Origin: Burkholderiales bacterium
Lineage (GTDB): Bacteria > Pseudomonadota > Gammaproteobacteria > Burkholderiales > SG8-39
Assembly (NCBI GenBank): GCA_035550695.1
Contig: DASZOS010000051.1
Coordinates: forward strand, 13,519-77,518
Length of the DNA stretch: 64,000 bases
Reading direction: 5' to 3'
The stretch's first letter is position 1; the number at the start of each line of letters is the position of its first letter. Positions 24,704 to 42,161 of the stretch are shown here, piece by piece. A program made the position numbers and the translations under genes. Under the pieces are notes generated by a model. It was not told where the DNA came from, made no database searches, and was given only the letters and a program-made list of their open reading frames with translations.

Positions 24704-25320
24704 AGCCGTGCTCTGAGGCGTGCGAGCGCAATCGCGCGCCTATCTTCGAGGTGCTCGAGCGCGTTTTCGCCGACCGCCGGTTCGTCCTGGAGATCGGCTC
24801 GGGCACCGGGCAGCACGCGGCCTATTTCGCGCCGGCGCTGCCGCACCTCGTCTGGCAACCGAGCGACCTGGCAGAGCATCTGGATGGAATCCGCCAATGG
24901 GTCGACGATTGCGCTGCACCGAACCTGCGCGCGCCGATCGAGCTCGACGCCGGGCGCGACTGGCCGCAGCTCGAGGCCGACGCGGTGTTCTCGGCCAACA
25001 CCTGCCACATCATGTCCTGGCCGCAGGTCGAGCGCATGTTCGCGGGCGTCGGCCGGCTGCTGCCCGCGCGCGGCGTGTTCGCGCTTTACGGCCCGTTCAA
25101 CTACGGCGGCCGGCACACGTCCGAGAGCAACGCGCGCTTCGACGCCATGCTGCGCGCGCGCGACCCGGCGAGCGGGCTGCGGGATTTCGAAGCGATAAAC
25201 GAGTTGGCCAGGCGTGCGGGACTCGGGCTGGAAGAGGACAATGCCATGCCCGCGAACAATCGCATGCTCGTCTTCCAGAAAAAAGGGGTCAAAAAAGGGG
25301 TCAGAGCAATTTTCCCGTAA
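24700..25320 (+). CDS. DUF938 / class I SAM-dependent methyltransferase-like protein
   Basis: 206 aa; VLEIGSGTGQH; ATGA overlap with the MFS gene; the last ~9 codons are encoded by REP sequence. Confidence 0.75.
   Translation: MKPCSEACERNRAPIFEVLERVFADRRFVLEIGSGTGQHAAYFAPALPHLVWQPSDLAEHLDGIRQWVDDCAAPNLRAPIELDAGRDWPQLEADAVFSANTCHIMSWPQVERMFAGVGRLLPARGVFALYGPFNYGGRHTSESNARFDAMLRARDPASGLRDFEAINELARRAGLGLEEDNAMPANNRMLVFQKKGVKKGVRAIFP
25293..25315 (+). repeat. REP-like terminal inverted repeat (left)
   Basis: AAAAGGGGTCAGAGCAATTTTCC; perfect reverse complement of 26060-26082; partial direct duplicate AAAAGGGGTCA at 25281-25291. Confidence 0.85.
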
Positions 25321-26005
25321 CATCTTTGGGTGGACGACCACGCCGCGGTTGCCTCACCGATCGTCCAAGTTTCGCCTCCGCATCCTCCAAGAAAGCCTCC
25401 GAACCGAGCGCCGAATCCGTATTGATGGCGTTGCGAATTTGCGCGACTACGGATTCATCCATGGAAACGGAAAACAAGGAGCGGAACGCCTCTTGCCGTT
25501 CCTGCGCGGTCGTGCCCAAGCGTGCGTGAATCGGGTGCTCGGTAATCAGGCTGTTAACGCGGCTTGCCGTGTAATGCGCATGGCTTGACCATGGATAGTC
25601 TGCAGGATCTGATACCAAGCCAGCGCGTACCGGATTGAGTTCTATGTACCGGTGACACGTGAGCAGATAGTTTTCCGAATCGACCAAGCTTGATTTGAAA
25701 CGTCCTTCCCAAAGCGTCCCGGTGCGCCCATGAACGCTATTGATGACGCGTACATAGCGACGTCCCAGGTCTTGCAGCGTCGCCGCGACAGCGCCTTGCT
25801 CCGAGGGCGTAACAAGCAGGTGTACGTGGTTGCTCATCAGGACGTATGCATGCACCGCGCAGCCTCTTCGGGCGGCGGATTCTCTCAGGCATTTGAGATA
25901 AAAGCGGCGGTCGACGTCGCCAAAGAAGCACCCAGCGCGATTGTTGCCGCGCTGGATTACATGCTGCGGAACACCAACAAGCTCTAGCCGAGGGGGCCGG
26001 GCCAT
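25301..26005 (-). CDS. REP-associated tyrosine transposase (IS200/IS605-like Y1 transposase, RAYT)
   Basis: 234 aa; HUH motif SNHVHLLV; Tyr region HRYIELNPVRAGLV; the stop codon lies inside the left REP. Confidence 0.85.
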   Translation of the reverse strand: MARPPRLELVGVPQHVIQRGNNRAGCFFGDVDRRFYLKCLRESAARRGCAVHAYVLMSNHVHLLVTPSEQGAVAATLQDLGRRYVRVINSVHGRTGTLWEGRFKSSLVDSENYLLTCHRYIELNPVRAGLVSDPADYPWSSHAHYTASRVNSLITEHPIHARLGTTAQERQEAFRSLFSVSMDESVVAQIRNAINTDSALGSEAFLEDAEAKLGRSVRQPRRGRPPKDVTGKLL

Positions 26006-26059
26006 GCCTCCTCAACGCATCACAGCGAAAAAAGTTGCGCTACTGCCCGACTTGTTTCC

Positions 26060-26082
26060 GGAAAATTGCTCTGACCCCTTTT
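26060..26082 (+). repeat. REP-like terminal inverted repeat (right)
   Basis: GGAAAATTGCTCTGACCCCTTTT; overlaps the stop codon of the neighbouring dehydrogenase gene. Confidence 0.85.
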
Positions 26083-26956
26083 AGTCCTTCATGAGCAGAT
26101 TCATCAGGCTGGAGGTGTCCCAGCGCTTGCCGCCGCGCGCCTGGATGTGGGCGTAGAACTGGTCGACGAGCGCCGCCACCGGCAGGCGCGCGCCGTTCTT
26201 CCTCGCTTCCTCGAGGCAGATGCCGAGGTCCTTGCGCATCCAGTCGACCGCGAAGCCGAAGCCGTCGAACTTCACTTCGTTCATCTGCTTCCAGCGGTTT
26301 TCCATCTGCCAGGACTGGGCGGCGCCCTTGGAAATGACACCGATGACCTTTTCAACGTCGAGGCCCGCGCGCTTGGCGAACGCGATGCCTTCGGCGAGGC
26401 CCTGCACCAGGCCCGCAATGCAGATCTGGTTCACCATCTTGGTGAGCTGGCCCGCCCCAGGGCCGCCGATGAGGTCGCACATCTTGGCGTAGACGTCGAG
26501 CACCGGCTTCGCCCTGGCGAAATCCGCCGGCTCGCCGCCGCACATGATGCCGAGCTGGGCGTTTTGCGCCCCGGCCTGGCCGCCCGAAACCGGCGCGTCG
26601 ATGAAGCCGATGCCTTTCTCCTTCGCCCTGGCGTGCACTTCTCTCGCCACGATGGCCGAGGCAGTGGTGTGATCGACGAGGATCGCGCCGCGCTTCATGC
26701 CAGCGAGGGCGCCGCTGTCGCCGTAAACGACCGAGCGCACGTCGTCGTCGTTGCCGACGCACATCATGACGAAATCGCAGTCCTTGGCCGCCGCGCGCGG
26801 GGTGGCGGCATGCTTTCCGCCGTACTCCTTCGCCCACTGCTGCGCCTTGGCGGCCGTGCGGTTATAGACGGTGACGTCATGGCCACCCTTTTTCACCAGG
26901 TGGCCCGCCATCGGGTAACCCATCACGCCCAGCCCGAGGAAAGAAACTTTCGCCAT
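26081..26956 (-). CDS. NAD(P)-dependent oxidoreductase, 3-hydroxyisobutyrate dehydrogenase family
   Basis: MAKVSFLGLGVMGYPMAGHL Rossmann start at 26956; 291 aa. Confidence 0.88.
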   Translation of the reverse strand: MAKVSFLGLGVMGYPMAGHLVKKGGHDVTVYNRTAAKAQQWAKEYGGKHAATPRAAAKDCDFVMMCVGNDDDVRSVVYGDSGALAGMKRGAILVDHTTASAIVAREVHARAKEKGIGFIDAPVSGGQAGAQNAQLGIMCGGEPADFARAKPVLDVYAKMCDLIGGPGAGQLTKMVNQICIAGLVQGLAEGIAFAKRAGLDVEKVIGVISKGAAQSWQMENRWKQMNEVKFDGFGFAVDWMRKDLGICLEEARKNGARLPVAALVDQFYAHIQARGGKRWDTSSLMNLLMKD

Positions 26957-32721: not shown

Positions 32722-33687
32722 CTAGAAGCCGATTCTCTGTTTCCGCGCGCGAGCGTCCCGGATGTCGTCCGGCCCGACCTCGCGCCTTCCGGCCACCTTC
32801 GCGTTGCCGAACGCCGAGTGGATGGCACGGCGCATCTCGCGCGGCGGCAGCGAGGCGAACTTGTCGAGCGCCGCCTGCGACAGCGTCTCGGGGAATTGAC
32901 GCCCCCAGTCGTGCGAGTCGCGGATCTCGCGGTAGATGTTACCGGCGATGCGCGCCGCACCGTCGGCGTCGGGAGGGTCGATCTCGTAGACCGCAAGCCG
33001 GTTGAGCAGCGGCTCGGGTATGCGCGCCACGTCGTTGGCGGTCGCGAGCCATACCGCGCCCGAGGCATCGATCGGCAACTCGACGAACTCGTCGACAAAG
33101 CGGGTTGCCGTCTCGTTCTCGAGCAGCTCGTACAGCGCGCCGAGCGGGTCGTACTGCCCCTCGGCGCTCGCCTTGTCGATCTCGTCCACCACCATCACCG
33201 GATTGGCGTAATCGCCGTTCACGAACGTGTCGAACACCTTGCCGGGCTTGGCGTTCTTCCACTGCGAGGAGGCGCCCGACAGCACCCAGCCCGCGGTGAG
33301 GGAGCTCATCGGCACGAAGCCGAATCCGGTGCCGAGGAGCTGCGCTATCTTGCGTGCGAAATGTGTCTTGCCGATGCCCGGCTCGCCGAGCAGCAGCATC
33401 GGCGGCAGCTCGATCGAGTCGTTCGAGTCGACGCAAAGGGCGAGGTGCTTGCGGATATCCTCGAGAACCCGCGTGAAGTTCGGCAGCTGGTCGAACAGCG
33501 CATCCATCTCGGGCAGCGCCGAGGGCTTCACCGTGAAGCGCTGGCCGCCGAGGCGCAGCATCTTCTCGTAGATCGAACGCAGCGCCTCGTTCGCCGTCGG
33601 AGGAAGCTGCTGCAGCGCCTTTTCAACGTTCCCGACGTCGTAGACGTCCTTGAAGCCCGCGATCGGAATAGCGACGCTCGCCGACAT
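32722..33687 (-). CDS. stand-alone Lon-type AAA+ ATPase module
   Basis: 321 aa; Walker A GEPGIGKTH, Walker B VMVVDEIDK, then DPLGALYELLE...ATAN...PEPLLNRL, which parallels the Lon ATPase domain; no protease domain. Confidence 0.8.
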   Translation of the reverse strand: MSASVAIPIAGFKDVYDVGNVEKALQQLPPTANEALRSIYEKMLRLGGQRFTVKPSALPEMDALFDQLPNFTRVLEDIRKHLALCVDSNDSIELPPMLLLGEPGIGKTHFARKIAQLLGTGFGFVPMSSLTAGWVLSGASSQWKNAKPGKVFDTFVNGDYANPVMVVDEIDKASAEGQYDPLGALYELLENETATRFVDEFVELPIDASGAVWLATANDVARIPEPLLNRLAVYEIDPPDADGAARIAGNIYREIRDSHDWGRQFPETLSQAALDKFASLPPREMRRAIHSAFGNAKVAGRREVGPDDIRDARARKQRIGF

Positions 33688-33818
33688 TTGTCACCTACCT
33701 TCCTTTTTTGTCGCCGGTAAAGCCACCTCCAGCGAAAACGCTAGCATGACGCTTTGTGACTAGCAAACCGCAGGCCTGGCAGAGGCTGCTCCCGAGTGCT
33801 AATTTTCCCTGCGCCGAC

Positions 33819-34259
33819 ATGACTACTAGAACGACTTCCTACCACCCGGAGTTGACCGCCGAAGTGTTCAACCGCCGCAGCGAGGGGCATCTCCCGGGGC
33901 TGCTCGGCGTCGACATAGTGGAAATTTCCGCAGACGCGGTCGTAAGCCGGCTCCCGGTGCGCCGCGAGGCGATGGCACCCAACGGGTTTCTGCACGCCGC
34001 CTCGGTCATCGCTCTGGCGGACACGAGCTGCGGCTACGGCTGCGTCACCCACCTGCCGCAAGGTGCGAGCGGGTTCACCACCGTCGAGCTGAAGTCGAAC
34101 TTCCTGGGCACCGTGCGCGACGGCACGATCCTGTGCCGGGCGACCCCGGTGCACCTTGGCCGGACCACCCAAGTGTGGGACGCCGAAGTCACCGCCGAGG
34201 CGAGCGGGACAAGAATCGCCCTGTTTCGCTGTACCCAGATGGTGCTCTGGCCGCGGTAG
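33819..34259 (+). CDS. PaaI-family hotdog-fold thioesterase
   Basis: 146 aa from the ATG at 33819; NGFLHAASVIALADTSCG and VELKSNFL motifs. Confidence 0.85.
   Translation: MTTRTTSYHPELTAEVFNRRSEGHLPGLLGVDIVEISADAVVSRLPVRREAMAPNGFLHAASVIALADTSCGYGCVTHLPQGASGFTTVELKSNFLGTVRDGTILCRATPVHLGRTTQVWDAEVTAEASGTRIALFRCTQMVLWPR
34051..34259 (+). repeat. 209-bp direct repeat, copy 1 (in-use 3' end of the thioesterase gene)
   Basis: 203/209 identical to 38166-38374 with no indels (hand alignment). Confidence 0.9.
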
Positions 34260-34298
34260 CAGGGCTGCTCGGCCAGCGCGGAAAGGCGCGACGCCCCG

Positions 34299-35201
34299 TT
34301 ATGCGCTGCCCGGAACGATTCCCTTGGGCAGCGCCGTGCAGTGCTTCGCGATGTCGCCGGCGCGAGTGAACCAGACCCGGTCCTTCAGCTTGTGCTGCGC
34401 GCAATGCCGGAGCGCCTGGCGCAGCGGGCGCGCGCGGAACGGGTGGCCGGTGATAAAGCCATGCAGGGACAGCGCGAAGACGAGCGGCTGCCTTTCGGAC
34501 CTTTCCAGCATCTCCTCGAACTGATCGATGATCATGTCGGCGAACTCGCGTCCCGAGTGGTCGCGCGTCGCGAGCTTGGTGGCGTCGTTCATCTCCAGCG
34601 GATAGGGCACCGAGAGCAGCGGCCCCGAGCGGGTTCGCATCCAGATCGGCTGGTCGTCGAACGGCCAGTCGAGCAGGTGCGTGTAGCCCGCTTCCTTCAG
34701 GAGATCGGGCGTCAGGCTGGATTCGAGCGCCGCTGGCCCCATCCATCCGGTCGGCCGCTTGCCGAGGTGCTTCTCGATGGTCTCGGCCACTTCCTTGATG
34801 ATCCGGGCTTCGTCCTCTTCCCAGTACATCTGCATCTGCTCCGAATTGGTGCGCCCGTGGCCGAGGACGTCGTCACCGCGGGCCCGGATCTTTTCGATGA
34901 TGTCCGGATAGTGCAGGCAGACGTCGCTGTTCAGGAGGATGGAGGCCGGCCAGCGCAGATCGTCCAGGATCTCGAACAGGCTCCAGTTGCCTACCCGGTT
35001 GCCGTAGTCGCGCCAAGCGTAGGTGCGCGTGTTCTGCGGGCCGCCGCGGTTCGTCGGGTCCATCCCCGTCCCGGCGCCGAAGGCGAAATGCTCGATGTTC
35101 AGCGCGACATAGAAGGCGAGCCGCTTGCCTTCCGGCCAGCTGTAATCCGGCCGCTTCACGATCGGCGAATGGTCATAGCGGGCATGGCGTGGCATCTTCA
35201 T
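34299..35201 (-). CDS. polysaccharide deacetylase family protein (PuuE-like)
   Basis: 300 aa; KRLAFYVALNIEHF...GHGRTN pattern of the NodB/PuuE-like fold. Confidence 0.75.
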   Translation of the reverse strand: MKMPRHARYDHSPIVKRPDYSWPEGKRLAFYVALNIEHFAFGAGTGMDPTNRGGPQNTRTYAWRDYGNRVGNWSLFEILDDLRWPASILLNSDVCLHYPDIIEKIRARGDDVLGHGRTNSEQMQMYWEEDEARIIKEVAETIEKHLGKRPTGWMGPAALESSLTPDLLKEAGYTHLLDWPFDDQPIWMRTRSGPLLSVPYPLEMNDATKLATRDHSGREFADMIIDQFEEMLERSERQPLVFALSLHGFITGHPFRARPLRQALRHCAQHKLKDRVWFTRAGDIAKHCTALPKGIVPGSA

Positions 35202-35329
35202 GTTGGGTGCCTCCTCTTGTTGGTCGTCCGGCGTTCATTGACCGCCCTGCCAGCATGTAATACGCTGCCTTCGCTGGCCAGGTCCTGAACCGAGTTCATT
35301 ATAAGAGCCGCAAATTGAGGAGGTGAACA

Positions 35330-36349
35330 ATGGTCCGAGCTCGTAGTGGCGTGTTTTTGTCGTTCCTGCTCTTGCTGTCCGCCTCCGCCGCCCAGGCGCA
35401 GCCCAAGAACGTCCGGATCATGATGGACTGGGTCGTCCAAGGCACGCACGCCCCGTTCTTCGTCGCCGACGAAAAGGGCTATTTCAAGAGCGAGGGCCTG
35501 GCGGTGGTGATCGACGCCGGCAAGGGCGCGACCAACACGGCGGTGAGCGTGGCCAGCGGCGTTTACCAGATGGGCTACGGCGACCTGCCGACCATGATCC
35601 GCTTCAACGCGCAGAACCCGGCTTCGCCGCTCACCACTGTCTACGTGAGCTTCGATGAGTCGCCCAACTGCATCGTCTCGCTCAAGTCCAAAGGCATCCG
35701 CACGCCGGCCGACCTGGAGGGCAAGAAAATCGCGGGCGGCCCCGGGGCCGCGGTCCACGACACCATTTCGATCCTGCTCAACGCGTCGGGCCACAAGAAC
35801 GTCAAGATCAACTGGGTGCCGGTGACCCCGCAGCTCTTTCCCTCGGTGCTGCGCAAGGGGGAAGTGGACGGCCTGGGCGCCTTCACCAACTCGCAGATCC
35901 CGGCGCTCCTCGACCTCGGCTTCAAGATGGAGGAGCTTTCGGTCCTGAAGTACTCGGATTTCGGCGCCAATCTCTACGGCCTCGGGCTCATCGTCACCAA
36001 GAAATTCGCCGATGAGAACCCGGAGGCGGTGCGCGGCCTGGTCAGGGCCTTCAATCGCGGGCTGAAGGACACCATCGCCAATCCGGAACAGGCGCTCGCC
36101 ATCATGAAGGCACGCGATCCCCTCATCAAGGTGGAGACCGAGAAGGTGCGCCTGCAGATCGTCCTCGGGCACACGGTCACGCCCTACGTCCAGCAGCACG
36201 GCCTGAGCTCGGTGACTCCCGAAAGGCTGAAGCAGAACATCGATGCGACGGTGGCCGCCTACCAGCTTGGCAAATCGCCAGACCCGGCGACGGTCTACAC
36301 CGACAAGTTCCTGCCGCCGCAGGCGGAGCGGATGGTGCCGAAGAAGTAG
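35330..36349 (+). CDS. ABC transporter substrate-binding protein (NMT1/THI5, NitT/TauT type)
   Basis: 339 aa; signal peptide ...SASAAQA; NMT1-like body. Confidence 0.85.
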   Translation: MVRARSGVFLSFLLLLSASAAQAQPKNVRIMMDWVVQGTHAPFFVADEKGYFKSEGLAVVIDAGKGATNTAVSVASGVYQMGYGDLPTMIRFNAQNPASPLTTVYVSFDESPNCIVSLKSKGIRTPADLEGKKIAGGPGAAVHDTISILLNASGHKNVKINWVPVTPQLFPSVLRKGEVDGLGAFTNSQIPALLDLGFKMEELSVLKYSDFGANLYGLGLIVTKKFADENPEAVRGLVRAFNRGLKDTIANPEQALAIMKARDPLIKVETEKVRLQIVLGHTVTPYVQQHGLSSVTPERLKQNIDATVAAYQLGKSPDPATVYTDKFLPPQAERMVPKK

Positions 36350-36353
36350 CCGC

Positions 36354-37154
36354 TCAGCCCTGCACCGCGAACACGCCGCCGTCCGCGCCGCGGGTCGCCC
36401 AGCCGGTCATGCGACGTTCGAGCACGTTGGCGACGAGGTACATCGCGATGCCCATCGCGGCGGTCACTAGCAGCGCAGCGAACGCGAGGGGCACCTCGAA
36501 CTTCGAGGAGGCGACGAGCATCAGATTGCCGATGCCCTTGTTGCCGGCCACCGTCTCCGCCACGATGGAGCCGACGAACGCCACGGTGATCGCCACTTTC
36601 AGCGAGGCGAAGAAATAGGGCATCGAGCGCGGCAGGCCCACCTTCTGGATGATCTGCCAGCGCGTCGCCCCGAGGGCCCGCAGCACGTCGCGCAGCTCGG
36701 GCTCCAGGGTCGCGATGCCGGTGGCCACGTTCACGAGGATCGGAAAGAACGAAATCAGGAAGGCCGTGATGATGGCGGGCACGATGCCGATGCCGAACCA
36801 GATGACGAGGATCGGGATCACCGCGACCTTCGGCACCGAGTTGAATCCGATCAGCGCGGGATAGAAGGCATCGTAGATCAGCGTCGAAGAGCCGATGGCG
36901 ATGCCCGCGAGCAGGCCGAACACCACCGCGAGCAGGAAGCCGATCCCGGTGGTGACGAAGGTCTGCCAGCCGCTCAGGAGAAGCGGCGCGCGGAACTGCC
37001 ACATGGCCTCGAACACCGCCGAAGGCGCCGGCAGCACGAATTGCTCGATCTTCAGCGCCCGCACGACGATTTCCCACAAGATGAAGAAAGCAGTGATCAC
37101 CGCCCAGGGCAGGACGCGGCGCACGGTTTTTCGGCGCAGCTCCGCGAGCCTCAC
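36354..37154 (-). CDS. ABC transporter permease (NitT/TauT family)
   Basis: GTG at 37154 overlaps the formamidase stop (GTGA); six-TM permease with the EAA-like region ALGATRWQIIQKVGLP. Confidence 0.85.
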   Translation of the reverse strand: MRLAELRRKTVRRVLPWAVITAFFILWEIVVRALKIEQFVLPAPSAVFEAMWQFRAPLLLSGWQTFVTTGIGFLLAVVFGLLAGIAIGSSTLIYDAFYPALIGFNSVPKVAVIPILVIWFGIGIVPAIITAFLISFFPILVNVATGIATLEPELRDVLRALGATRWQIIQKVGLPRSMPYFFASLKVAITVAFVGSIVAETVAGNKGIGNLMLVASSKFEVPLAFAALLVTAAMGIAMYLVANVLERRMTGWATRGADGGVFAVQG

Positions 37155-38134
37155 GTCGGTTTTCTGAGGATGTTCTTGTTGAGCATGGCGTGAACTCCCT
37201 TGATATTGTTCACGGTCTGCGTCACGTGCAGGTCTACCGCAAGGCTGCCCAGGGCGTAGGCCTCGTCGCGGGAAATTCCCGTCAGGTCGACGATCCATTG
37301 GAGCATTTCGCGCAGCGCCTGGCGCGCCGCGTCGTCCAGGTCCGCATCGAGGCCGAAGGTGAGGTAGTGCGTCGGCGTCTCCGCCCGCGGCAGGCGCCAC
37401 TCCAGGTCCTTGCGCACGCGGAACTCGAACGTGCCCTCGAGCGCCGTTTCGGCCGCCGTGCCGTTCACTTCGCCGTCGCCTTGGATGGCATGGCCGTCGC
37501 CGGTGGAAAAGAGCGCGCCCTCGTTCAGCACGGGGAGAAACACCGTGCTCCCCGCCACCAGCTCCTTGCAGTCGATGTTGCCGCCGAACTCGCGCGGCTC
37601 CTTGCTGTTCTGCCGCCCCGCCTCCGCCGGCGGCGCGACGCCAAGCTGCCCGAAGAACGGCCGCATCGGCACGCGTAGCCCCGAGGGCAGGACAGCCATG
37701 TTGCTGCCCTCGTCGAGGGCGATATGGATCAGGCGGTAATAGGGGTAGTCCCCGGGGAGCGTCCCCATGTACCGGCGGAACAGGTTGTACGCCCAGTCCT
37801 GGCGCAGCCCGATCTCGAGGATCTGGATCTCCAGCACATCGCCGATCGCAGCGCCGCGCACGAAGACCGGGCCCGTGAGGATATGGTTGCCCGTGCCGCG
37901 CTTGACCTTCGCATGGATGTCCAGGAGCTCCGGTGGGACCTTGAACCCTCTCGTCTTCGGCGGGAGCCACTCCGGATTACCGGACACGCACTCGATCACC
38001 ACCCGGTCCCCGGAATCCACCGTGAGCACAGGCGGCAACGAAGCGTCGAAGAATCCCCAGTGGACCGTTTCCGGCGTCGAGCGAAGCAGATGCGTGGTGG
38101 CGGCCAGGACGGACTTGTCGCGCGGGATGTTCAT
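37151..38134 (-). CDS. acetamidase/formamidase family protein
   Basis: 327 aa; FmdA/AmdA-type sequence (GNIDCKEL, FSTGDGHAIQGDGEV). Confidence 0.85.
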   Translation of the reverse strand: MNIPRDKSVLAATTHLLRSTPETVHWGFFDASLPPVLTVDSGDRVVIECVSGNPEWLPPKTRGFKVPPELLDIHAKVKRGTGNHILTGPVFVRGAAIGDVLEIQILEIGLRQDWAYNLFRRYMGTLPGDYPYYRLIHIALDEGSNMAVLPSGLRVPMRPFFGQLGVAPPAEAGRQNSKEPREFGGNIDCKELVAGSTVFLPVLNEGALFSTGDGHAIQGDGEVNGTAAETALEGTFEFRVRKDLEWRLPRAETPTHYLTFGLDADLDDAARQALREMLQWIVDLTGISRDEAYALGSLAVDLHVTQTVNNIKGVHAMLNKNILRKPT

Positions 38135-38165
38135 GCTAACCCTCCTCGGTTAACCTCCTTATGTT

Positions 38166-38374
38166 ACCTGCCGCAAGGCGCGAGCGGGTTCACCACCGTC
38201 GAGCTGAAGTCGAACTTCCTGGGCACCGTGCGCGACGGCACGATCCTGTGCCGGGCGACCCCGGTGCACCTTGGCCGGACCACCCAAGTGTGGGACGCCG
38301 AAGTCACTGCCGAGGCGAGCGGGGCAAGGATCGCCCTATTTCGCTGTACCCAGATGGTGCTCTGGCCGCGCTAG
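38166..38374 (+). pseudogene. 209-bp direct repeat, copy 2: orphan 3' fragment of the thioesterase gene (last 68 codons plus stop)
   Basis: Encodes LPQGASGFTTVELKSNF...MVLWPR with no 5' part; 6 substitutions versus copy 1, 5 of them synonymous. Confidence 0.85.
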
Positions 38375-38416
38375 GGATTTGCCAAAACCCTTTTTCCTGT
38401 GCTTCAATTCCAACAG

Positions 38417-38485
38417 ATGACGCACCGGTTCTCCTTCGGCTTCTTCTTTTATTTCCCCTGCCTGCTGGCGGAAGGGACCGGCTAA
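38417..38485 (+). CDS. Phe-rich leader peptide (MTHRFSFGFFFYFPCLLAEGTG)
   Basis: 22 codons with 7 Phe and 1 Tyr, followed by mutually exclusive antiterminator/terminator helices upstream of DAHP synthase. Confidence 0.6.
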   Translation: MTHRFSFGFFFYFPCLLAEGTG

Positions 38486-38510
38486 GCTCCAGCCCACGGA
38501 ATCCAGGAAA

Positions 38511-38543
38511 CCGCCAGCGCCAAAAGCCTGGCGGTTTTTTTTT
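38511..38543 (+). terminator. attenuator intrinsic terminator
   Basis: CCGCCAG...CTGGCGG 7-bp stem followed by T9; the 5' arm can pair instead with GCTGGCGG at 38464-38471. Confidence 0.7.
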
Positions 38544-38558
38544 GCCAAGGTGAAAACA

Positions 38559-39668
38559 ATGACCACCCCACTCGACAACTACCTCGCCATCGTTCCCGCG
38601 GACAAAACCTCGCTCACCGACGACGAGCGCATCGACAACATCGTCCCGCTGCCGCCGCCGGAGCACCTGATCCGCTTCTTTCCGATCCAGGGCACGCAGG
38701 TCGAAACCCTGGTCACCGAGACGCGCCGCAAGCTGCGCCAGATCCTCCACGGGCCGGCCGACCGGCTGCTGGTGGTCATGGGACCCTGCTCGATCCACGA
38801 TCCGGCGGCCGCCATCGCGTACGCGGAAAGACTGGCCTCGGAAAGGAAGAAGCACCGAGGCGAGCTCGAGCTCGTGATGCGCGTGTACTTCGAGAAGCCG
38901 CGCACCACGGTGGGCTGGAAGGGCCTCATCAACGACCCTTACATGAACGGCAGCTTCCGCATCAACGAAGGACTGCGCATCGCGCGCGACCTGCTGGTGC
39001 GCATCAACCAGACCGGCGTGCCGGCGGGCTGCGAGTTCCTCGACGTCATCTCGCCGCAGTACATCGGCGACCTGGTGTCCTGGGGCGCCATCGGGGCGCG
39101 CACCACCGAGAGCCAGGTGCACCGGGAGCTCGCTTCCGGTCTCTCGGCGCCGGTGGGGTTCAAGAACGGCACCGACGGCAACGTGAAAATCGCCGTCGAC
39201 GCGCTGCTCGCGGCCCGGCAGAAGCACCATTTCCTGTCGGTGCACAAGAGCGGCCAGGTGGCGATCGTCGAGACGCGCGGCAACGAGGACTGCCATATCA
39301 TCCTGCGCGGCGGCAAGGCGCCGAACTACGACGCCGCGAGCGTGGAGGCCGCCTGCCGCGAGCTCGCGAAAGCGAAACTGCCCGAGCGGCTGATGATCGA
39401 CTGCTCGCACGCCAACGCCGCGAAACAGTTCAGGCGCCAGATCGAGGTGGTGGCGGACGTGGCCGGGCAGGTCGAAAACGGCGAGCGCCGAATCCTCGGC
39501 GTCATGGTCGAGTCGAACCTGGTGGAAGGCCGCCAGGACGCCGGGCCGGGCAAGCCGCTCAAGTTCGGCCAGAGCATCACCGATGCGTGTCTCGGCTGGG
39601 AGGATTCGGCCGCGCTCCTCGAGCGCCTCGCCGACGCGGTACGCAAGCGCCGCAGCCGGCGCGGATAA
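38559..39668 (+). CDS. aroG: 3-deoxy-7-phosphoheptulonate (DAHP) synthase, class I
   Basis: 369 aa; AAGGTG RBS 6 nt before the ATG at 38559; GPCSIHD and IMVESNL-type motifs; isozyme assignment (Phe-sensitive) is only inferred from the leader. Confidence 0.9.
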   Translation: MTTPLDNYLAIVPADKTSLTDDERIDNIVPLPPPEHLIRFFPIQGTQVETLVTETRRKLRQILHGPADRLLVVMGPCSIHDPAAAIAYAERLASERKKHRGELELVMRVYFEKPRTTVGWKGLINDPYMNGSFRINEGLRIARDLLVRINQTGVPAGCEFLDVISPQYIGDLVSWGAIGARTTESQVHRELASGLSAPVGFKNGTDGNVKIAVDALLAARQKHHFLSVHKSGQVAIVETRGNEDCHIILRGGKAPNYDAASVEAACRELAKAKLPERLMIDCSHANAAKQFRRQIEVVADVAGQVENGERRILGVMVESNLVEGRQDAGPGKPLKFGQSITDACLGWEDSAALLERLADAVRKRRSRRG

Positions 39669-39687
39669 TTCGGCATAATGCGCCAGG

Positions 39688-40230
39688 ATGGCCGAACGCC
39701 CGCAGCAGCTCGCGCACCTCGAGTTCCTGGGTGACGCGCTGCGCTTCGCGAACCAGATCCACGCGCTGATCCCGAAGTGCCCCCTGCTGGAGAATTTTTC
39801 CTCCGAGGAGGTGAGGCTGCTCGCGCACTTCTTGGAGGTGTACCGCGCCGAGCCGGCGATCGAGATCATCCGCGAGGGCGACGGCGGCGACTTCATGCTG
39901 ATGATCGTCGAAGGCAAGGTCGAAGTGCAGAAGCGCGATCGCTGGAACACGCCGCAGCTCATGGCGGTGGTCGAGGCCGGACAGTCGCTGGGTGAAATGT
40001 CGATGATCGACGGCGAGCCGCGCTTCGCCACCTGCGTGGCGACGCAGCCGACCCTCATCGCCGTGCTGCACCGCGAGAGCCTGGCGCGCATCATCGTCGA
40101 GCAGCCGATGCTCGGCGCCAAGATCCTGATGGAGCTCGTGCTCATGCTCTCGCAGCGGCTGCGCGCCACGGGCGAGCGGCTGCTCGGCCTGATGGACGAG
40201 CACTCGCAGCCGGCCGCGCCGCTGCTGTAA
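39688..40230 (+). CDS. cyclic nucleotide-binding domain protein
   Basis: 180 aa; cNMP-binding fold signature IIREGDGGDFMLMIVEGKVEV...GEMSMIDGEPRFATCVA. Confidence 0.8.
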   Translation: MAERPQQLAHLEFLGDALRFANQIHALIPKCPLLENFSSEEVRLLAHFLEVYRAEPAIEIIREGDGGDFMLMIVEGKVEVQKRDRWNTPQLMAVVEAGQSLGEMSMIDGEPRFATCVATQPTLIAVLHRESLARIIVEQPMLGAKILMELVLMLSQRLRATGERLLGLMDEHSQPAAPLL

Positions 40231-40260
40231 GCTGCGCGCCGGGTCGCCCGACTAGACACC

Positions 40261-41219
<959 letters not shown>

Positions 41220-41223
<4 letters not shown>

Positions 41224-42161
41224 GCGCACCGGGAAGAGCTTGCCCGGTCTCCTACCGGCACGGAGCGCGCGCGCTGGCGGGCGCGGCCTTGCTGGAGGTG
41301 GATACCCTGTGGGTCGCTGGCGGGCTCTATGGCAATCCGCTCGCCCTCGAGCGTCTGCTGCAGCTCTACGAAGCGGAGCCGGGCTCGAAGGCGCTGGTGT
41401 TCAACGGCGATTTTCACTGGTTCGACGTTTTTCCCGAGGAATTCGCGCAGATCGAGCGCGGCGTGTCGCGGTACCTCGCCACGCGCGGCAATGTTGAGAC
41501 CGAGCTTGCCGCGCCGTTCGCAGGAGCGGGTTGCGGCTGCGCTTATCCGGACTGGGTGGACGACGCCACGGTCGAGCATTCCAACCGCGTGATCGAGCGC
41601 CTGCGCGCCACGGCTGCCTGCTTCCCGCGGGCGCTCGAGCGGCTCGCGCGCCTGCCGATGCACCTCGTGGCTGCTGTGGGGGGCGAGCGCGTCGCCGTAG
41701 TGCACGGCGACGCCGATTCGCTCGCCGGCTGGGGCTTTTCGCAGGAAACGCTCGGCACCGAGCCGGGCCGGGCCGCGGCCGCGCGGGCGTTCGCGGAGGC
41801 GAACGCGAGAATCTTCGCTTCCAGCCACAGCTGCCTGCCGGTGCTGCAGCAGTTCGCCGGCGGTCATGTGATCGCGAACAACGGTGCCGCCGGCATGCCG
41901 AATTTCCGCGGCACCCGCTTCGGCTTGGCGACGCGCATCTCGGTGCGCGCGAGCGCGGGGGCCTTGTACGGCGCGCGCGCGGCGCATCTTTTCGTCGAGA
42001 CCGTGGCGCTCGACTATGACGCGCGGGCGTGGCGCGGGCGCTTCATCGCGCAGTGGCCTGAAGGCTCGGCGGCCCACGCGTCGTATTTCGGGCGCATCTG
42101 CGAGGGGCCCGGATACCGTACCGAGCAGGCGCTGCGCCGCGAGACGGCGCTCGCCGCGTGA
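41220..42161 (+). CDS. metallophosphoesterase-like protein
   Basis: GTG at 41220 overlaps the stop (GTGA); LWVAGGLYGN, FNGDFHWFD, VVHGDADS and SSHSC resemble calcineurin-like phosphoesterase motifs. Confidence 0.65.

Follow-up and report, generated by a model that had tools for sequence, protein, structure and literature searches.

A strain-variable amidase/transporter cassette between 209-bp repeats of a thioesterase gene end in an uncultured soil Burkholderiales bacterium, probably shaped by homologous recombination without a dedicated integrase

In Campbell-type integrants, such as those of suicide vectors, the insert lies between repeats of the homology segment, each repeat combines donor and resident sequence in reciprocal fashion, and the integration can be reverted via the repeats. 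Gene 3' ends are also the site of two well described types of element, the cryptic prophage e14 at icd/icdC of E. coli K-12 (Hill, Gray and Brody 1989, cited in PMC13626634) and the cis-mobilizable elements (CIMEs) of Streptococcus ICESt1/ICESt3 at fda (PMC5704250; PMC6323972). Here we describe a locus with a comparable anatomy in a metagenome-assembled genome (MAG), 63% complete, that is placed among uncultured soil Burkholderiales by its AlaS homologues (GCA_035550695.1). The stretch of DNA analysed (64,000 nucleotides, referred to as the window) lies on an 85-kb contig of this MAG (C51; DASZOS010000051.1). It harbours a cassette of four genes, encoding a deacetylase-family hydrolase (D), a substrate-binding protein (N), an ABC permease (P) and an amidase (A), between two direct repeats of the 3' end of a thioesterase gene. 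We consider it probable (roughly 0.6) that this is a strain-variable unit of 4,115 bp, made up of one thioesterase end of 209 bp and a cassette of 3,906 bp, in a repeat-cassette-repeat arrangement, which was shaped by homologous recombination without a dedicated integrase.

The direct repeats (34051-34259 and 38166-38374) are 209 nt long, gap-free and identical at 203/209 positions according to a repeat search and a MAFFT alignment, in agreement with the hand alignment of an earlier note on this DNA. Only these two copies are present in the whole MAG. The identity starts within the gene of a hotdog-fold thioesterase (...CACCC/ACCTGCC) and ends exactly after its TAG stop codon. The thioesterase gene (33756-34259, + strand; 4HBT/PaaI-MenI-like; PF03061, 3e-14; TIGR00369 above cut-off) is intact, with its start at the ATG at 33819 (146 aa) in the gene calls of the Joint Genome Institute (JGI). 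It ends in copy A (34051-34259, + strand), its functional 3' end, while copy B (38166-38374, + strand) is a displaced, non-coding fragment. Codon by codon inspection agreed with the earlier count of five synonymous third-position changes, at 34064 (T/C, GGT/GGC), 34193 (C/T, ACC/ACT), 34214 (A/G, AGA/AGG), 34223 (G/A, CTG/CTA) and 34256 (G/C, CGG/CGC), and one replacement, at 34209 (A/G, ACA Thr/GCA Ala). With five transitions and one transversion placed at random in the thioesterase frame, the probability of at least five synonymous changes is 0.015. These differences are present in the window but proved partly sample-dependent, as the copies of some runs differ at offsets 13 and 205 only.

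The gene order AAA-thioesterase-aroG-cNMP without the cassette is conserved in over 20 congeneric species, which identifies the thioesterase as the orthologue in a conserved AAA-thioesterase-aroG synteny. Three sister lineages (AlaS 93-94% identical) are also empty, with the thioesterase followed by aroG, and no second copy of the thioesterase end was found in the 24 congeners or the 3 sister lineages examined. The same empty site occurs in at least seven contigs of the species itself (L059, L060, L062-L064, L068 and L159), so that the predicted order of thioesterase, Phe leader and aroG was indeed found in congeners, sister lineages and conspecific contigs. In empty contigs the thioesterase stop is directly followed by the sequence that lies at 38375-38549 (+ strand) in the window. 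This native downstream DNA comprises the aroG promoter, a Phe-rich leader peptide and an attenuator, and in the filled allele it keeps 209 bp of its original upstream context in the form of copy B.

Both junctions were also found in other data. The left junction (34259/34260) is crossed by unitigs in eight independent soil or rhizosphere runs (X1-X6, X9 and X14) and the right junction (38165/38166) by unitigs in X4, X6 and X9. Independent JGI assemblies, picked up through identical amidase or aroG proteins, yielded filled contigs across both junctions (L049 of 20.9 kb, L050 and L053), contigs that connect alaS/AAA, via the complete thioesterase gene, with the cassette (L051, L151, L153, L156 and L160-L162), contigs that connect the cassette with aroG (L052 and L066) and contigs ending inside the repeats (L055-L058). 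The duplication is thus no assembly artefact of this MAG alone, and the cassette is a real, lineage-specific insertion. It is also polymorphic, with filled and empty alleles coexisting within the same populations. The depth of the cassette unitig is 0.4-0.8 of that of the flank in all 8 DNA runs, from two studies, and never exceeds 1, and the depth of the repeat core equals the sum of flank and cassette (in X6 11.8 for the flank, 5.9 for the cassette and 17.9 for the core).

In a different congener species, a single different open reading frame (ORF) without any repeat occupies the thioesterase/aroG spacer (L048, contig G021:C99, 1893-2672). Its product of 259 aa looks like an FkbM methyltransferase by eye. 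Counting the cassette, foreign DNA has entered this site on at least two occasions.

The history of the two copies was read from haplotypes at offsets 13, 142, 158, 163, 172 and 205 of the repeat. Copy A is T-CAAG-G in most filled contigs, and T-TGGG-G in L051, L058 and unitigs of X3, X4, X6 and X9. Copy B is C-TGGA-C in the window, L050 and L066, and C-TGGG-C in L049, L052 and L053. The main-lineage empty contigs carry T-TGGG-C, a divergent empty strain (L067) carries C-CGGG-C plus A32, G70, C106, G121 and T196, and a loop contig (L054) carries C-CAAG-G. The filled (T/CAAG-G ... C/TGGG-C), empty (T/TGGG-C) and loop (C/CAAG-G) forms are exact reciprocal recombinants of one exchange, placed in a perfectly identical core of 129 nt between offsets 13 and 142. 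The Thr allele (A158) was found in cassette-attached contigs only, the Ala allele both with and without the cassette. Likewise, A163 and G205 were seen only adjoining the cassette, and outgroup polarity shows all three to be derived and private to the cassette-linked copy. According to the outgroups (L067 and L163-L165), C13 and C142 are ancestral and T13 and T142 derived. Both copies are therefore mosaics of ancestral and derived alleles, in which the cassette-proximal part is non-resident and the distal part resident. The marks of a Campbell-type event are thus present, as the repeats of the homology segment are reciprocal donor/resident hybrids (by assembler phasing) and an empty allele with the same flanks exists.

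Of the 209 repeat sites, 5-6 distinguish the two copies, while filled and empty contigs show no fixed difference in their flanks (essentially 0 of ~8,400 sites). With a conservative flank count of 3/4,770, the excess of 5/209 in the repeat is significant (Fisher p = 6e-6). Consequently, the repeat differences do not represent recent neutral decay, and the earlier argument that neutral decay of a fresh in-situ duplication fits poorly was upheld. Several of the differences correspond to alleles that other lineages have in their functional thioesterase genes; the functional allele of L067 has C13 in common with copy B, and A32 in common with some copies B. The further suggestion that the copies are orthologous gene ends from two lineages stands as far as these standing alleles are concerned, but one copy per lineage is too simple, each copy being a mosaic.

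Strain L067 itself (sample 3300036848), compared with window positions 33586-42000, is ~6% diverged in the 5' part of the thioesterase gene (28 differences in 465 nt) and shows 0.4% divergence from the aroG leader onward. This shift points to a breakpoint of homologous recombination between lineages at or near the repeat region.

The haplotypes also bear on an older origin within the lineage itself. It may be supposed that a circularised or tandem cluster was copied in through template switching or end joining, a process resembling microhomology-mediated break-induced replication, that 209 bp of the target were re-copied, that the copies diverged afterwards and that the present empty alleles are secondary deletions caused by recombination of the two repeats. 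T13, shared by copy A and the empty allele, and T142, shared by copy B and the empty allele, are both derived, so the empty allele can be read as an A/B recombinant; the total number of mutations equals that under integration, and a cassette without a close relative elsewhere is compatible with long residence. However, all sister lineages are empty, and a single crossover product is common to all main-lineage empty contigs, of which there are at least seven. Of the five fixed changes, four would fall to copy A, which is under selection, and one to copy B, which is neutral (p of about 0.03, estimated on the assumption of a copy A rate of 0.3 of neutral), and C13 and A32 of copy B would have to coincide with the functional allele of the divergent strain. 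We consider such an origin unlikely. Integration of a circle with a diverged thioesterase end and excision from an older filled ancestor require equal numbers of mutations, and the haplotypes fit both.

A linear donor would be a different starting point. Homology-facilitated illegitimate recombination is an established way in which foreign DNA is added by means of one homologous arm (PMC3240628, PMC3410848) and does not require a recombinase; here the anchor would lie in the thioesterase gene and the amidase-proximal end would have been joined to offset 0. This predicts a pure resident copy B, but copy B always carries the non-resident C13 and sometimes A32, and it is the cassette-distal part of copy A that is resident. 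Since copy B is not a pure resident allele, this route fits worse, and the cassette-proximal position of the non-resident alleles in both repeats is better explained by a circular donor. A linear donor is thus highly improbable.

A circular or tandem form is also suggested by the gene order of the cassette. In 9 complete loci the canonical cluster has the order N(-) D(+) A(+) gap gene P(+), in which the gap gene of ~0.95 kb encodes an ABC ATPase of the NitT/TauT type. The window order, read in the orientation of the amidase, is A P N D, which is a circular permutation of the canonical cluster, opened in the D-A spacer. This opening is the exact place of the thioesterase fragment in the loop form. 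The permutation makes a circular or tandem intermediate in the history of the cassette likely, and an intermediate carrying the cassette plus the thioesterase end probably existed. The ATPase gene has been cleanly deleted, leaving a GTGA overlap of the amidase stop and the permease start at the position of the canonical gap gene. The canonical D-A spacers were considered as a source of the spacers at the cassette ends and were rejected, as they are short and unrelated in sequence.

The permuted order was looked for in 80 genome loci and was not found. The amidase cluster at 90% identity (26 contigs) is confined to this locus among 5.8e9 proteins searched, the next homologue being 79% identical. 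The nearest clusters belong to MAGs of soil Xanthobacteraceae/Hyphomicrobiales and to one congener (G001), where the canonical cluster is present on two highly similar contigs, G001:C151 (L045/L078) and G001:C203 (L046/L077); this pair is either a duplication or the result of two strains binned together. Genome G001 is publicly recorded as 'uncultured Enterobacteriaceae' and looks like a mislabelled Burkholderiales genome.

We therefore propose homologous exchange in the repeat as the basis of the polymorphism. Filled and empty alleles would interconvert, or once have done so, by a RecA-type single crossover of the Campbell type, with a circular or tandem DNA carrying the cassette and a captured thioesterase end as intermediate; the exchange would depend on RecA. 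The arrangement may persist since the thioesterase gene stays intact and aroG keeps its native upstream region of 209 bp.

Several observations weigh against this reading. A donor arrangement was sought in the sister lineages, all of which are empty; no such arrangement was found, and the first joining of the thioesterase end to the cassette was not observed. Offset 13 segregates, as an RNA contig of run X28 (33860-34097) joins the thioesterase 5' sequence of the main lineage to C at 34064. C13 thus also occurs in the full-length gene and the T/C site is no fixed difference between copies A and B, which makes the history of the alleles more reticulate than a single event. As the MAG is 63% complete, a recombinase encoded elsewhere could act in trans. 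The phasing across the 129-nt core rests on the assemblers (read pairs): offsets 13 and 142 can be linked only through read pairs or through single reads that reach 131 nt, the data used were assemblies and k=31 unitigs, and the latter cannot phase the core. Moreover, sample 3300049741 was assembled as the empty contig L059 plus the closed loop L054, and the de Bruijn graph with all its edge depths is the same for a mixture of filled and empty strains as for an empty chromosome with a free 4.1-kb circle.

The last two points are the basis for regarding the filled allele as an artefact of the assembly graph, in which the chromosome is always empty, the cassette and one repeat form a 4.1-kb circle of their own or are part of a different replicon or organism, and the shared repeat sometimes leads assemblers to thread this unit into the chromosome. 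Contig L054 is 4,242 nt long with an exact terminal overlap of 127 nt, giving a unit of 4,115 nt (209 + 3,906) in a closed cycle at k=127; it may be merely a graph loop. Graph topology and depths fit an artefact equally well, and since the repeat depth is the sum of flank and cassette in both models, depth ratios are uninformative on a free circle versus an integrated cassette. Real integration is favoured because the path leads from the thioesterase 5' sequence into the cassette in at least 11 independent assemblies and from the cassette into aroG in 5, while the ambiguous ones break within the repeats (L055-L058). It is further favoured because no replication or mobilisation gene is present among the annotated genes of the 4,115-bp unit and because the depth of the cassette never rises above that of the chromosome. 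An artefact is therefore considered very unlikely. L054 could also be a real circle. In that case a non-replicating, recombinase-free circle, with a captured gene end as its sole attachment site, would be repeatedly excised and re-integrated by homologous recombination of the host and passed between conspecific strains. As an alternative, the unit would be mobilised by a yet undiscovered recombinase specific for the thioesterase end; both are quite unlikely.

Because the footprint looks like an att site, the locus had been described as an island that targets a gene 3' end and restores the gene. Indeed, the footprint of e14 at icd/icdC is alike, with a duplicated gene end and a reconstituted gene (PMC13626634), and CIMEs are by definition flanked by att sites and devoid of recombination genes (PMC5704250). 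The repeats could then be attL and attR of an integrase-type island or of a CIME-like remnant, the recombinase being lost or acting in trans; the MAG is incomplete and has two matches to the tyrosine recombinase family (PF00589) on other contigs. However, PF00589 has no match on the 85-kb contig, the cassette was found nowhere else and never adjoining an integrase among the 5.8e9 proteins, and no other duplication of the thioesterase end exists in the related lineages examined, so that the description as a targeting island was not borne out. Moreover, the cargo is entirely a rearranged metabolic cluster, and an exchange anywhere in the 129-nt core explains the hybrid alleles without a defined core site. 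An integrase-type origin consequently has a very low probability.

The absence of mobility genes from the cassette, as claimed before, was confirmed, all four genes encoding hydrolases or transporter parts. No transposase was found among the cassette ORFs, the repeat search gave no inverted repeats joining the cassette ends, and no cognate integrative and conjugative or integrative and mobilizable element for a CIME-type mobilisation in trans was found in the MAG, 63% complete. A transposase of the type associated with repetitive extragenic palindromes (RAYT) is encoded at 25281-26083 of the window, between 23-nt inverted REP-like repeats, of which the 64-kb window contains only two copies. 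This RAYT/REP element was rejected as mobiliser of the cassette, as it is confined to 25.3-26.1 kb and is absent from the vicinity of the junctions.

The 3,906 bp between the repeats harbour four intact genes, separated by spacers of 39, 128, 4, -4 and 31 nt counted from repeat to repeat, with a GC content slightly under that of the flanks. The left-junction spacer (34260-34298, 39 nt) runs from the thioesterase stop to the deacetylase stop and shows no match to the native DNA downstream of the thioesterase gene in relatives. It is followed by the gene of a polysaccharide-deacetylase-family (PuuE-like) hydrolase (34299-35201, - strand, 300 aa; PF01522), 70-78% identical at the amino acid level to the product of the gene that precedes the amidase gene in canonical clusters. 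The divergent promoter region between this gene and the binding-protein gene (35202-35329) contains a promoter-like TTCACC-18-TATAAT on the minus strand (35327-35298). The periplasmic binding protein of the NMT1/SsuA family (35330-36349, + strand, 339 aa; PF09084, 3.5e-40; TIGR01728 weak) and the permease of the SsuC/TauC/NtrB type (36354-37154, - strand, 266 aa) have their stop codons 4 nt apart, and the GTG start of the permease overlaps the stop of the FmdA/AmdA-family amidase (37151-38134, - strand, 327 aa; PF03069, 2.5e-32). The right-junction spacer (38135-38165, 31 nt, - strand), upstream of the amidase, is AT-richer and contains two Shine-Dalgarno-like motifs. The four-gene content claimed before was thus retrieved, but the matches behind the names 'PuuE-like' and 'formamidase' are far below the NCBIfam cut-offs (99 versus 424 bits for TIGR03212, PuuE, and 69 versus 500 bits). 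The transporter of the cassette has no ATPase gene; the best homologue of the missing ATPase elsewhere in the MAG is 61% identical, and a paralogous ATPase at G000:C19:44657-45430 is a candidate partner of the transporter.

All four cassette genes are transcribed, as contigs of 100% identity were found in four soil metatranscriptomes from 2020, in which the aroG leader had little or no RNA coverage. In the D/N intergenic region the RNA contigs of four runs break sharply at 35273-35274 and 35276-35291, one of them with adapter sequence at 35274, and these ends (35273-35291) are probably divergent transcription start sites. RNA contigs of the amidase end at 38133-38140 in three runs. Since these ends fall inside the 31-nt spacer, the amidase transcript seems to start there (predicted start site at about 38135-38141), with a promoter that would overlap the junction with copy B. 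A sigma-70 promoter of the amidase is not claimed, only weak hexamers (TTGCGG-17-TTAACC) being present across the junction.

Upstream of aroG, the Phe-rich leader peptide (MTHRFSFGFFFYFPCLLAEGTG, followed by a stop codon) is encoded within 38417-38545 and is conserved across the genus (L004-L024). A terminator-like hairpin with a T9 run (38518-38542) is kept in the same genomes. In several species of the genus the thioesterase stop overlaps the leader ATG (ATGA), by which the aroG control region abuts or falls within the thioesterase 3' end. This contact may be a reason why retaining 209 bp of upstream sequence matters.

The locus offers a clean natural case of accessory metabolic genes entering or leaving a bacterial chromosome without mobile-element machinery, in which the same soils yielded filled, empty and reciprocal-product haplotypes and the cassette genes are transcribed. 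As the locus shows, the att-like duplication of a gene end alone is no evidence of an integrase island. Repeat-bounded islets in MAGs furthermore give assembly graphs that can be resolved in more than one way; one sample gave a loop contig and another an integrated contig. If the circle were real, the unit would represent intraspecific gene mobility in a minimal form; otherwise it is ordinary flexible-genome biology.

Compared with the described systems, the anatomy of the islet is of the e14/icd type without a recombinase. As in e14, in the description cited above, the element lies within the 3' end of a housekeeping gene and carries its own copy of that end, which leaves the gene itself unbroken, with a displaced C-terminal pseudo-fragment at the far end; in both cases the copies differ mainly by synonymous changes, and excision of e14 is described to yield a chimeric gene. 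Following the same description, e14 measures 15 kb and has its own integrase and an SOS-induced, site-specific excision, whereas the unit described here measures 4.1 kb, is purely metabolic, has no recombinase and was seen at one locus of one species only. CIMEs share the att-like direct repeat at a gene 3' end around cargo without integration or conjugation genes. However, their repeats are short att cores of a known family of integrative and conjugative elements, with an integrase in related elements, while the repeats found here are 209 bp of coding sequence. The four genes are orthologous to those of the canonical five-gene amidase/deacetylase/NitT-TauT-type ABC cluster (60-81% aa identity), but they are arranged as A P N D rather than N D A T P (T being the ATPase gene), the ATPase gene is absent and N and P converge, with 4 nt between their stops. 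The structure matches that of a Campbell-type homologous integrant, with repeats of the homology segment, hybrid alleles and a circularly permuted gene order; unlike the integrants of suicide vectors, it is found in natural soil populations.

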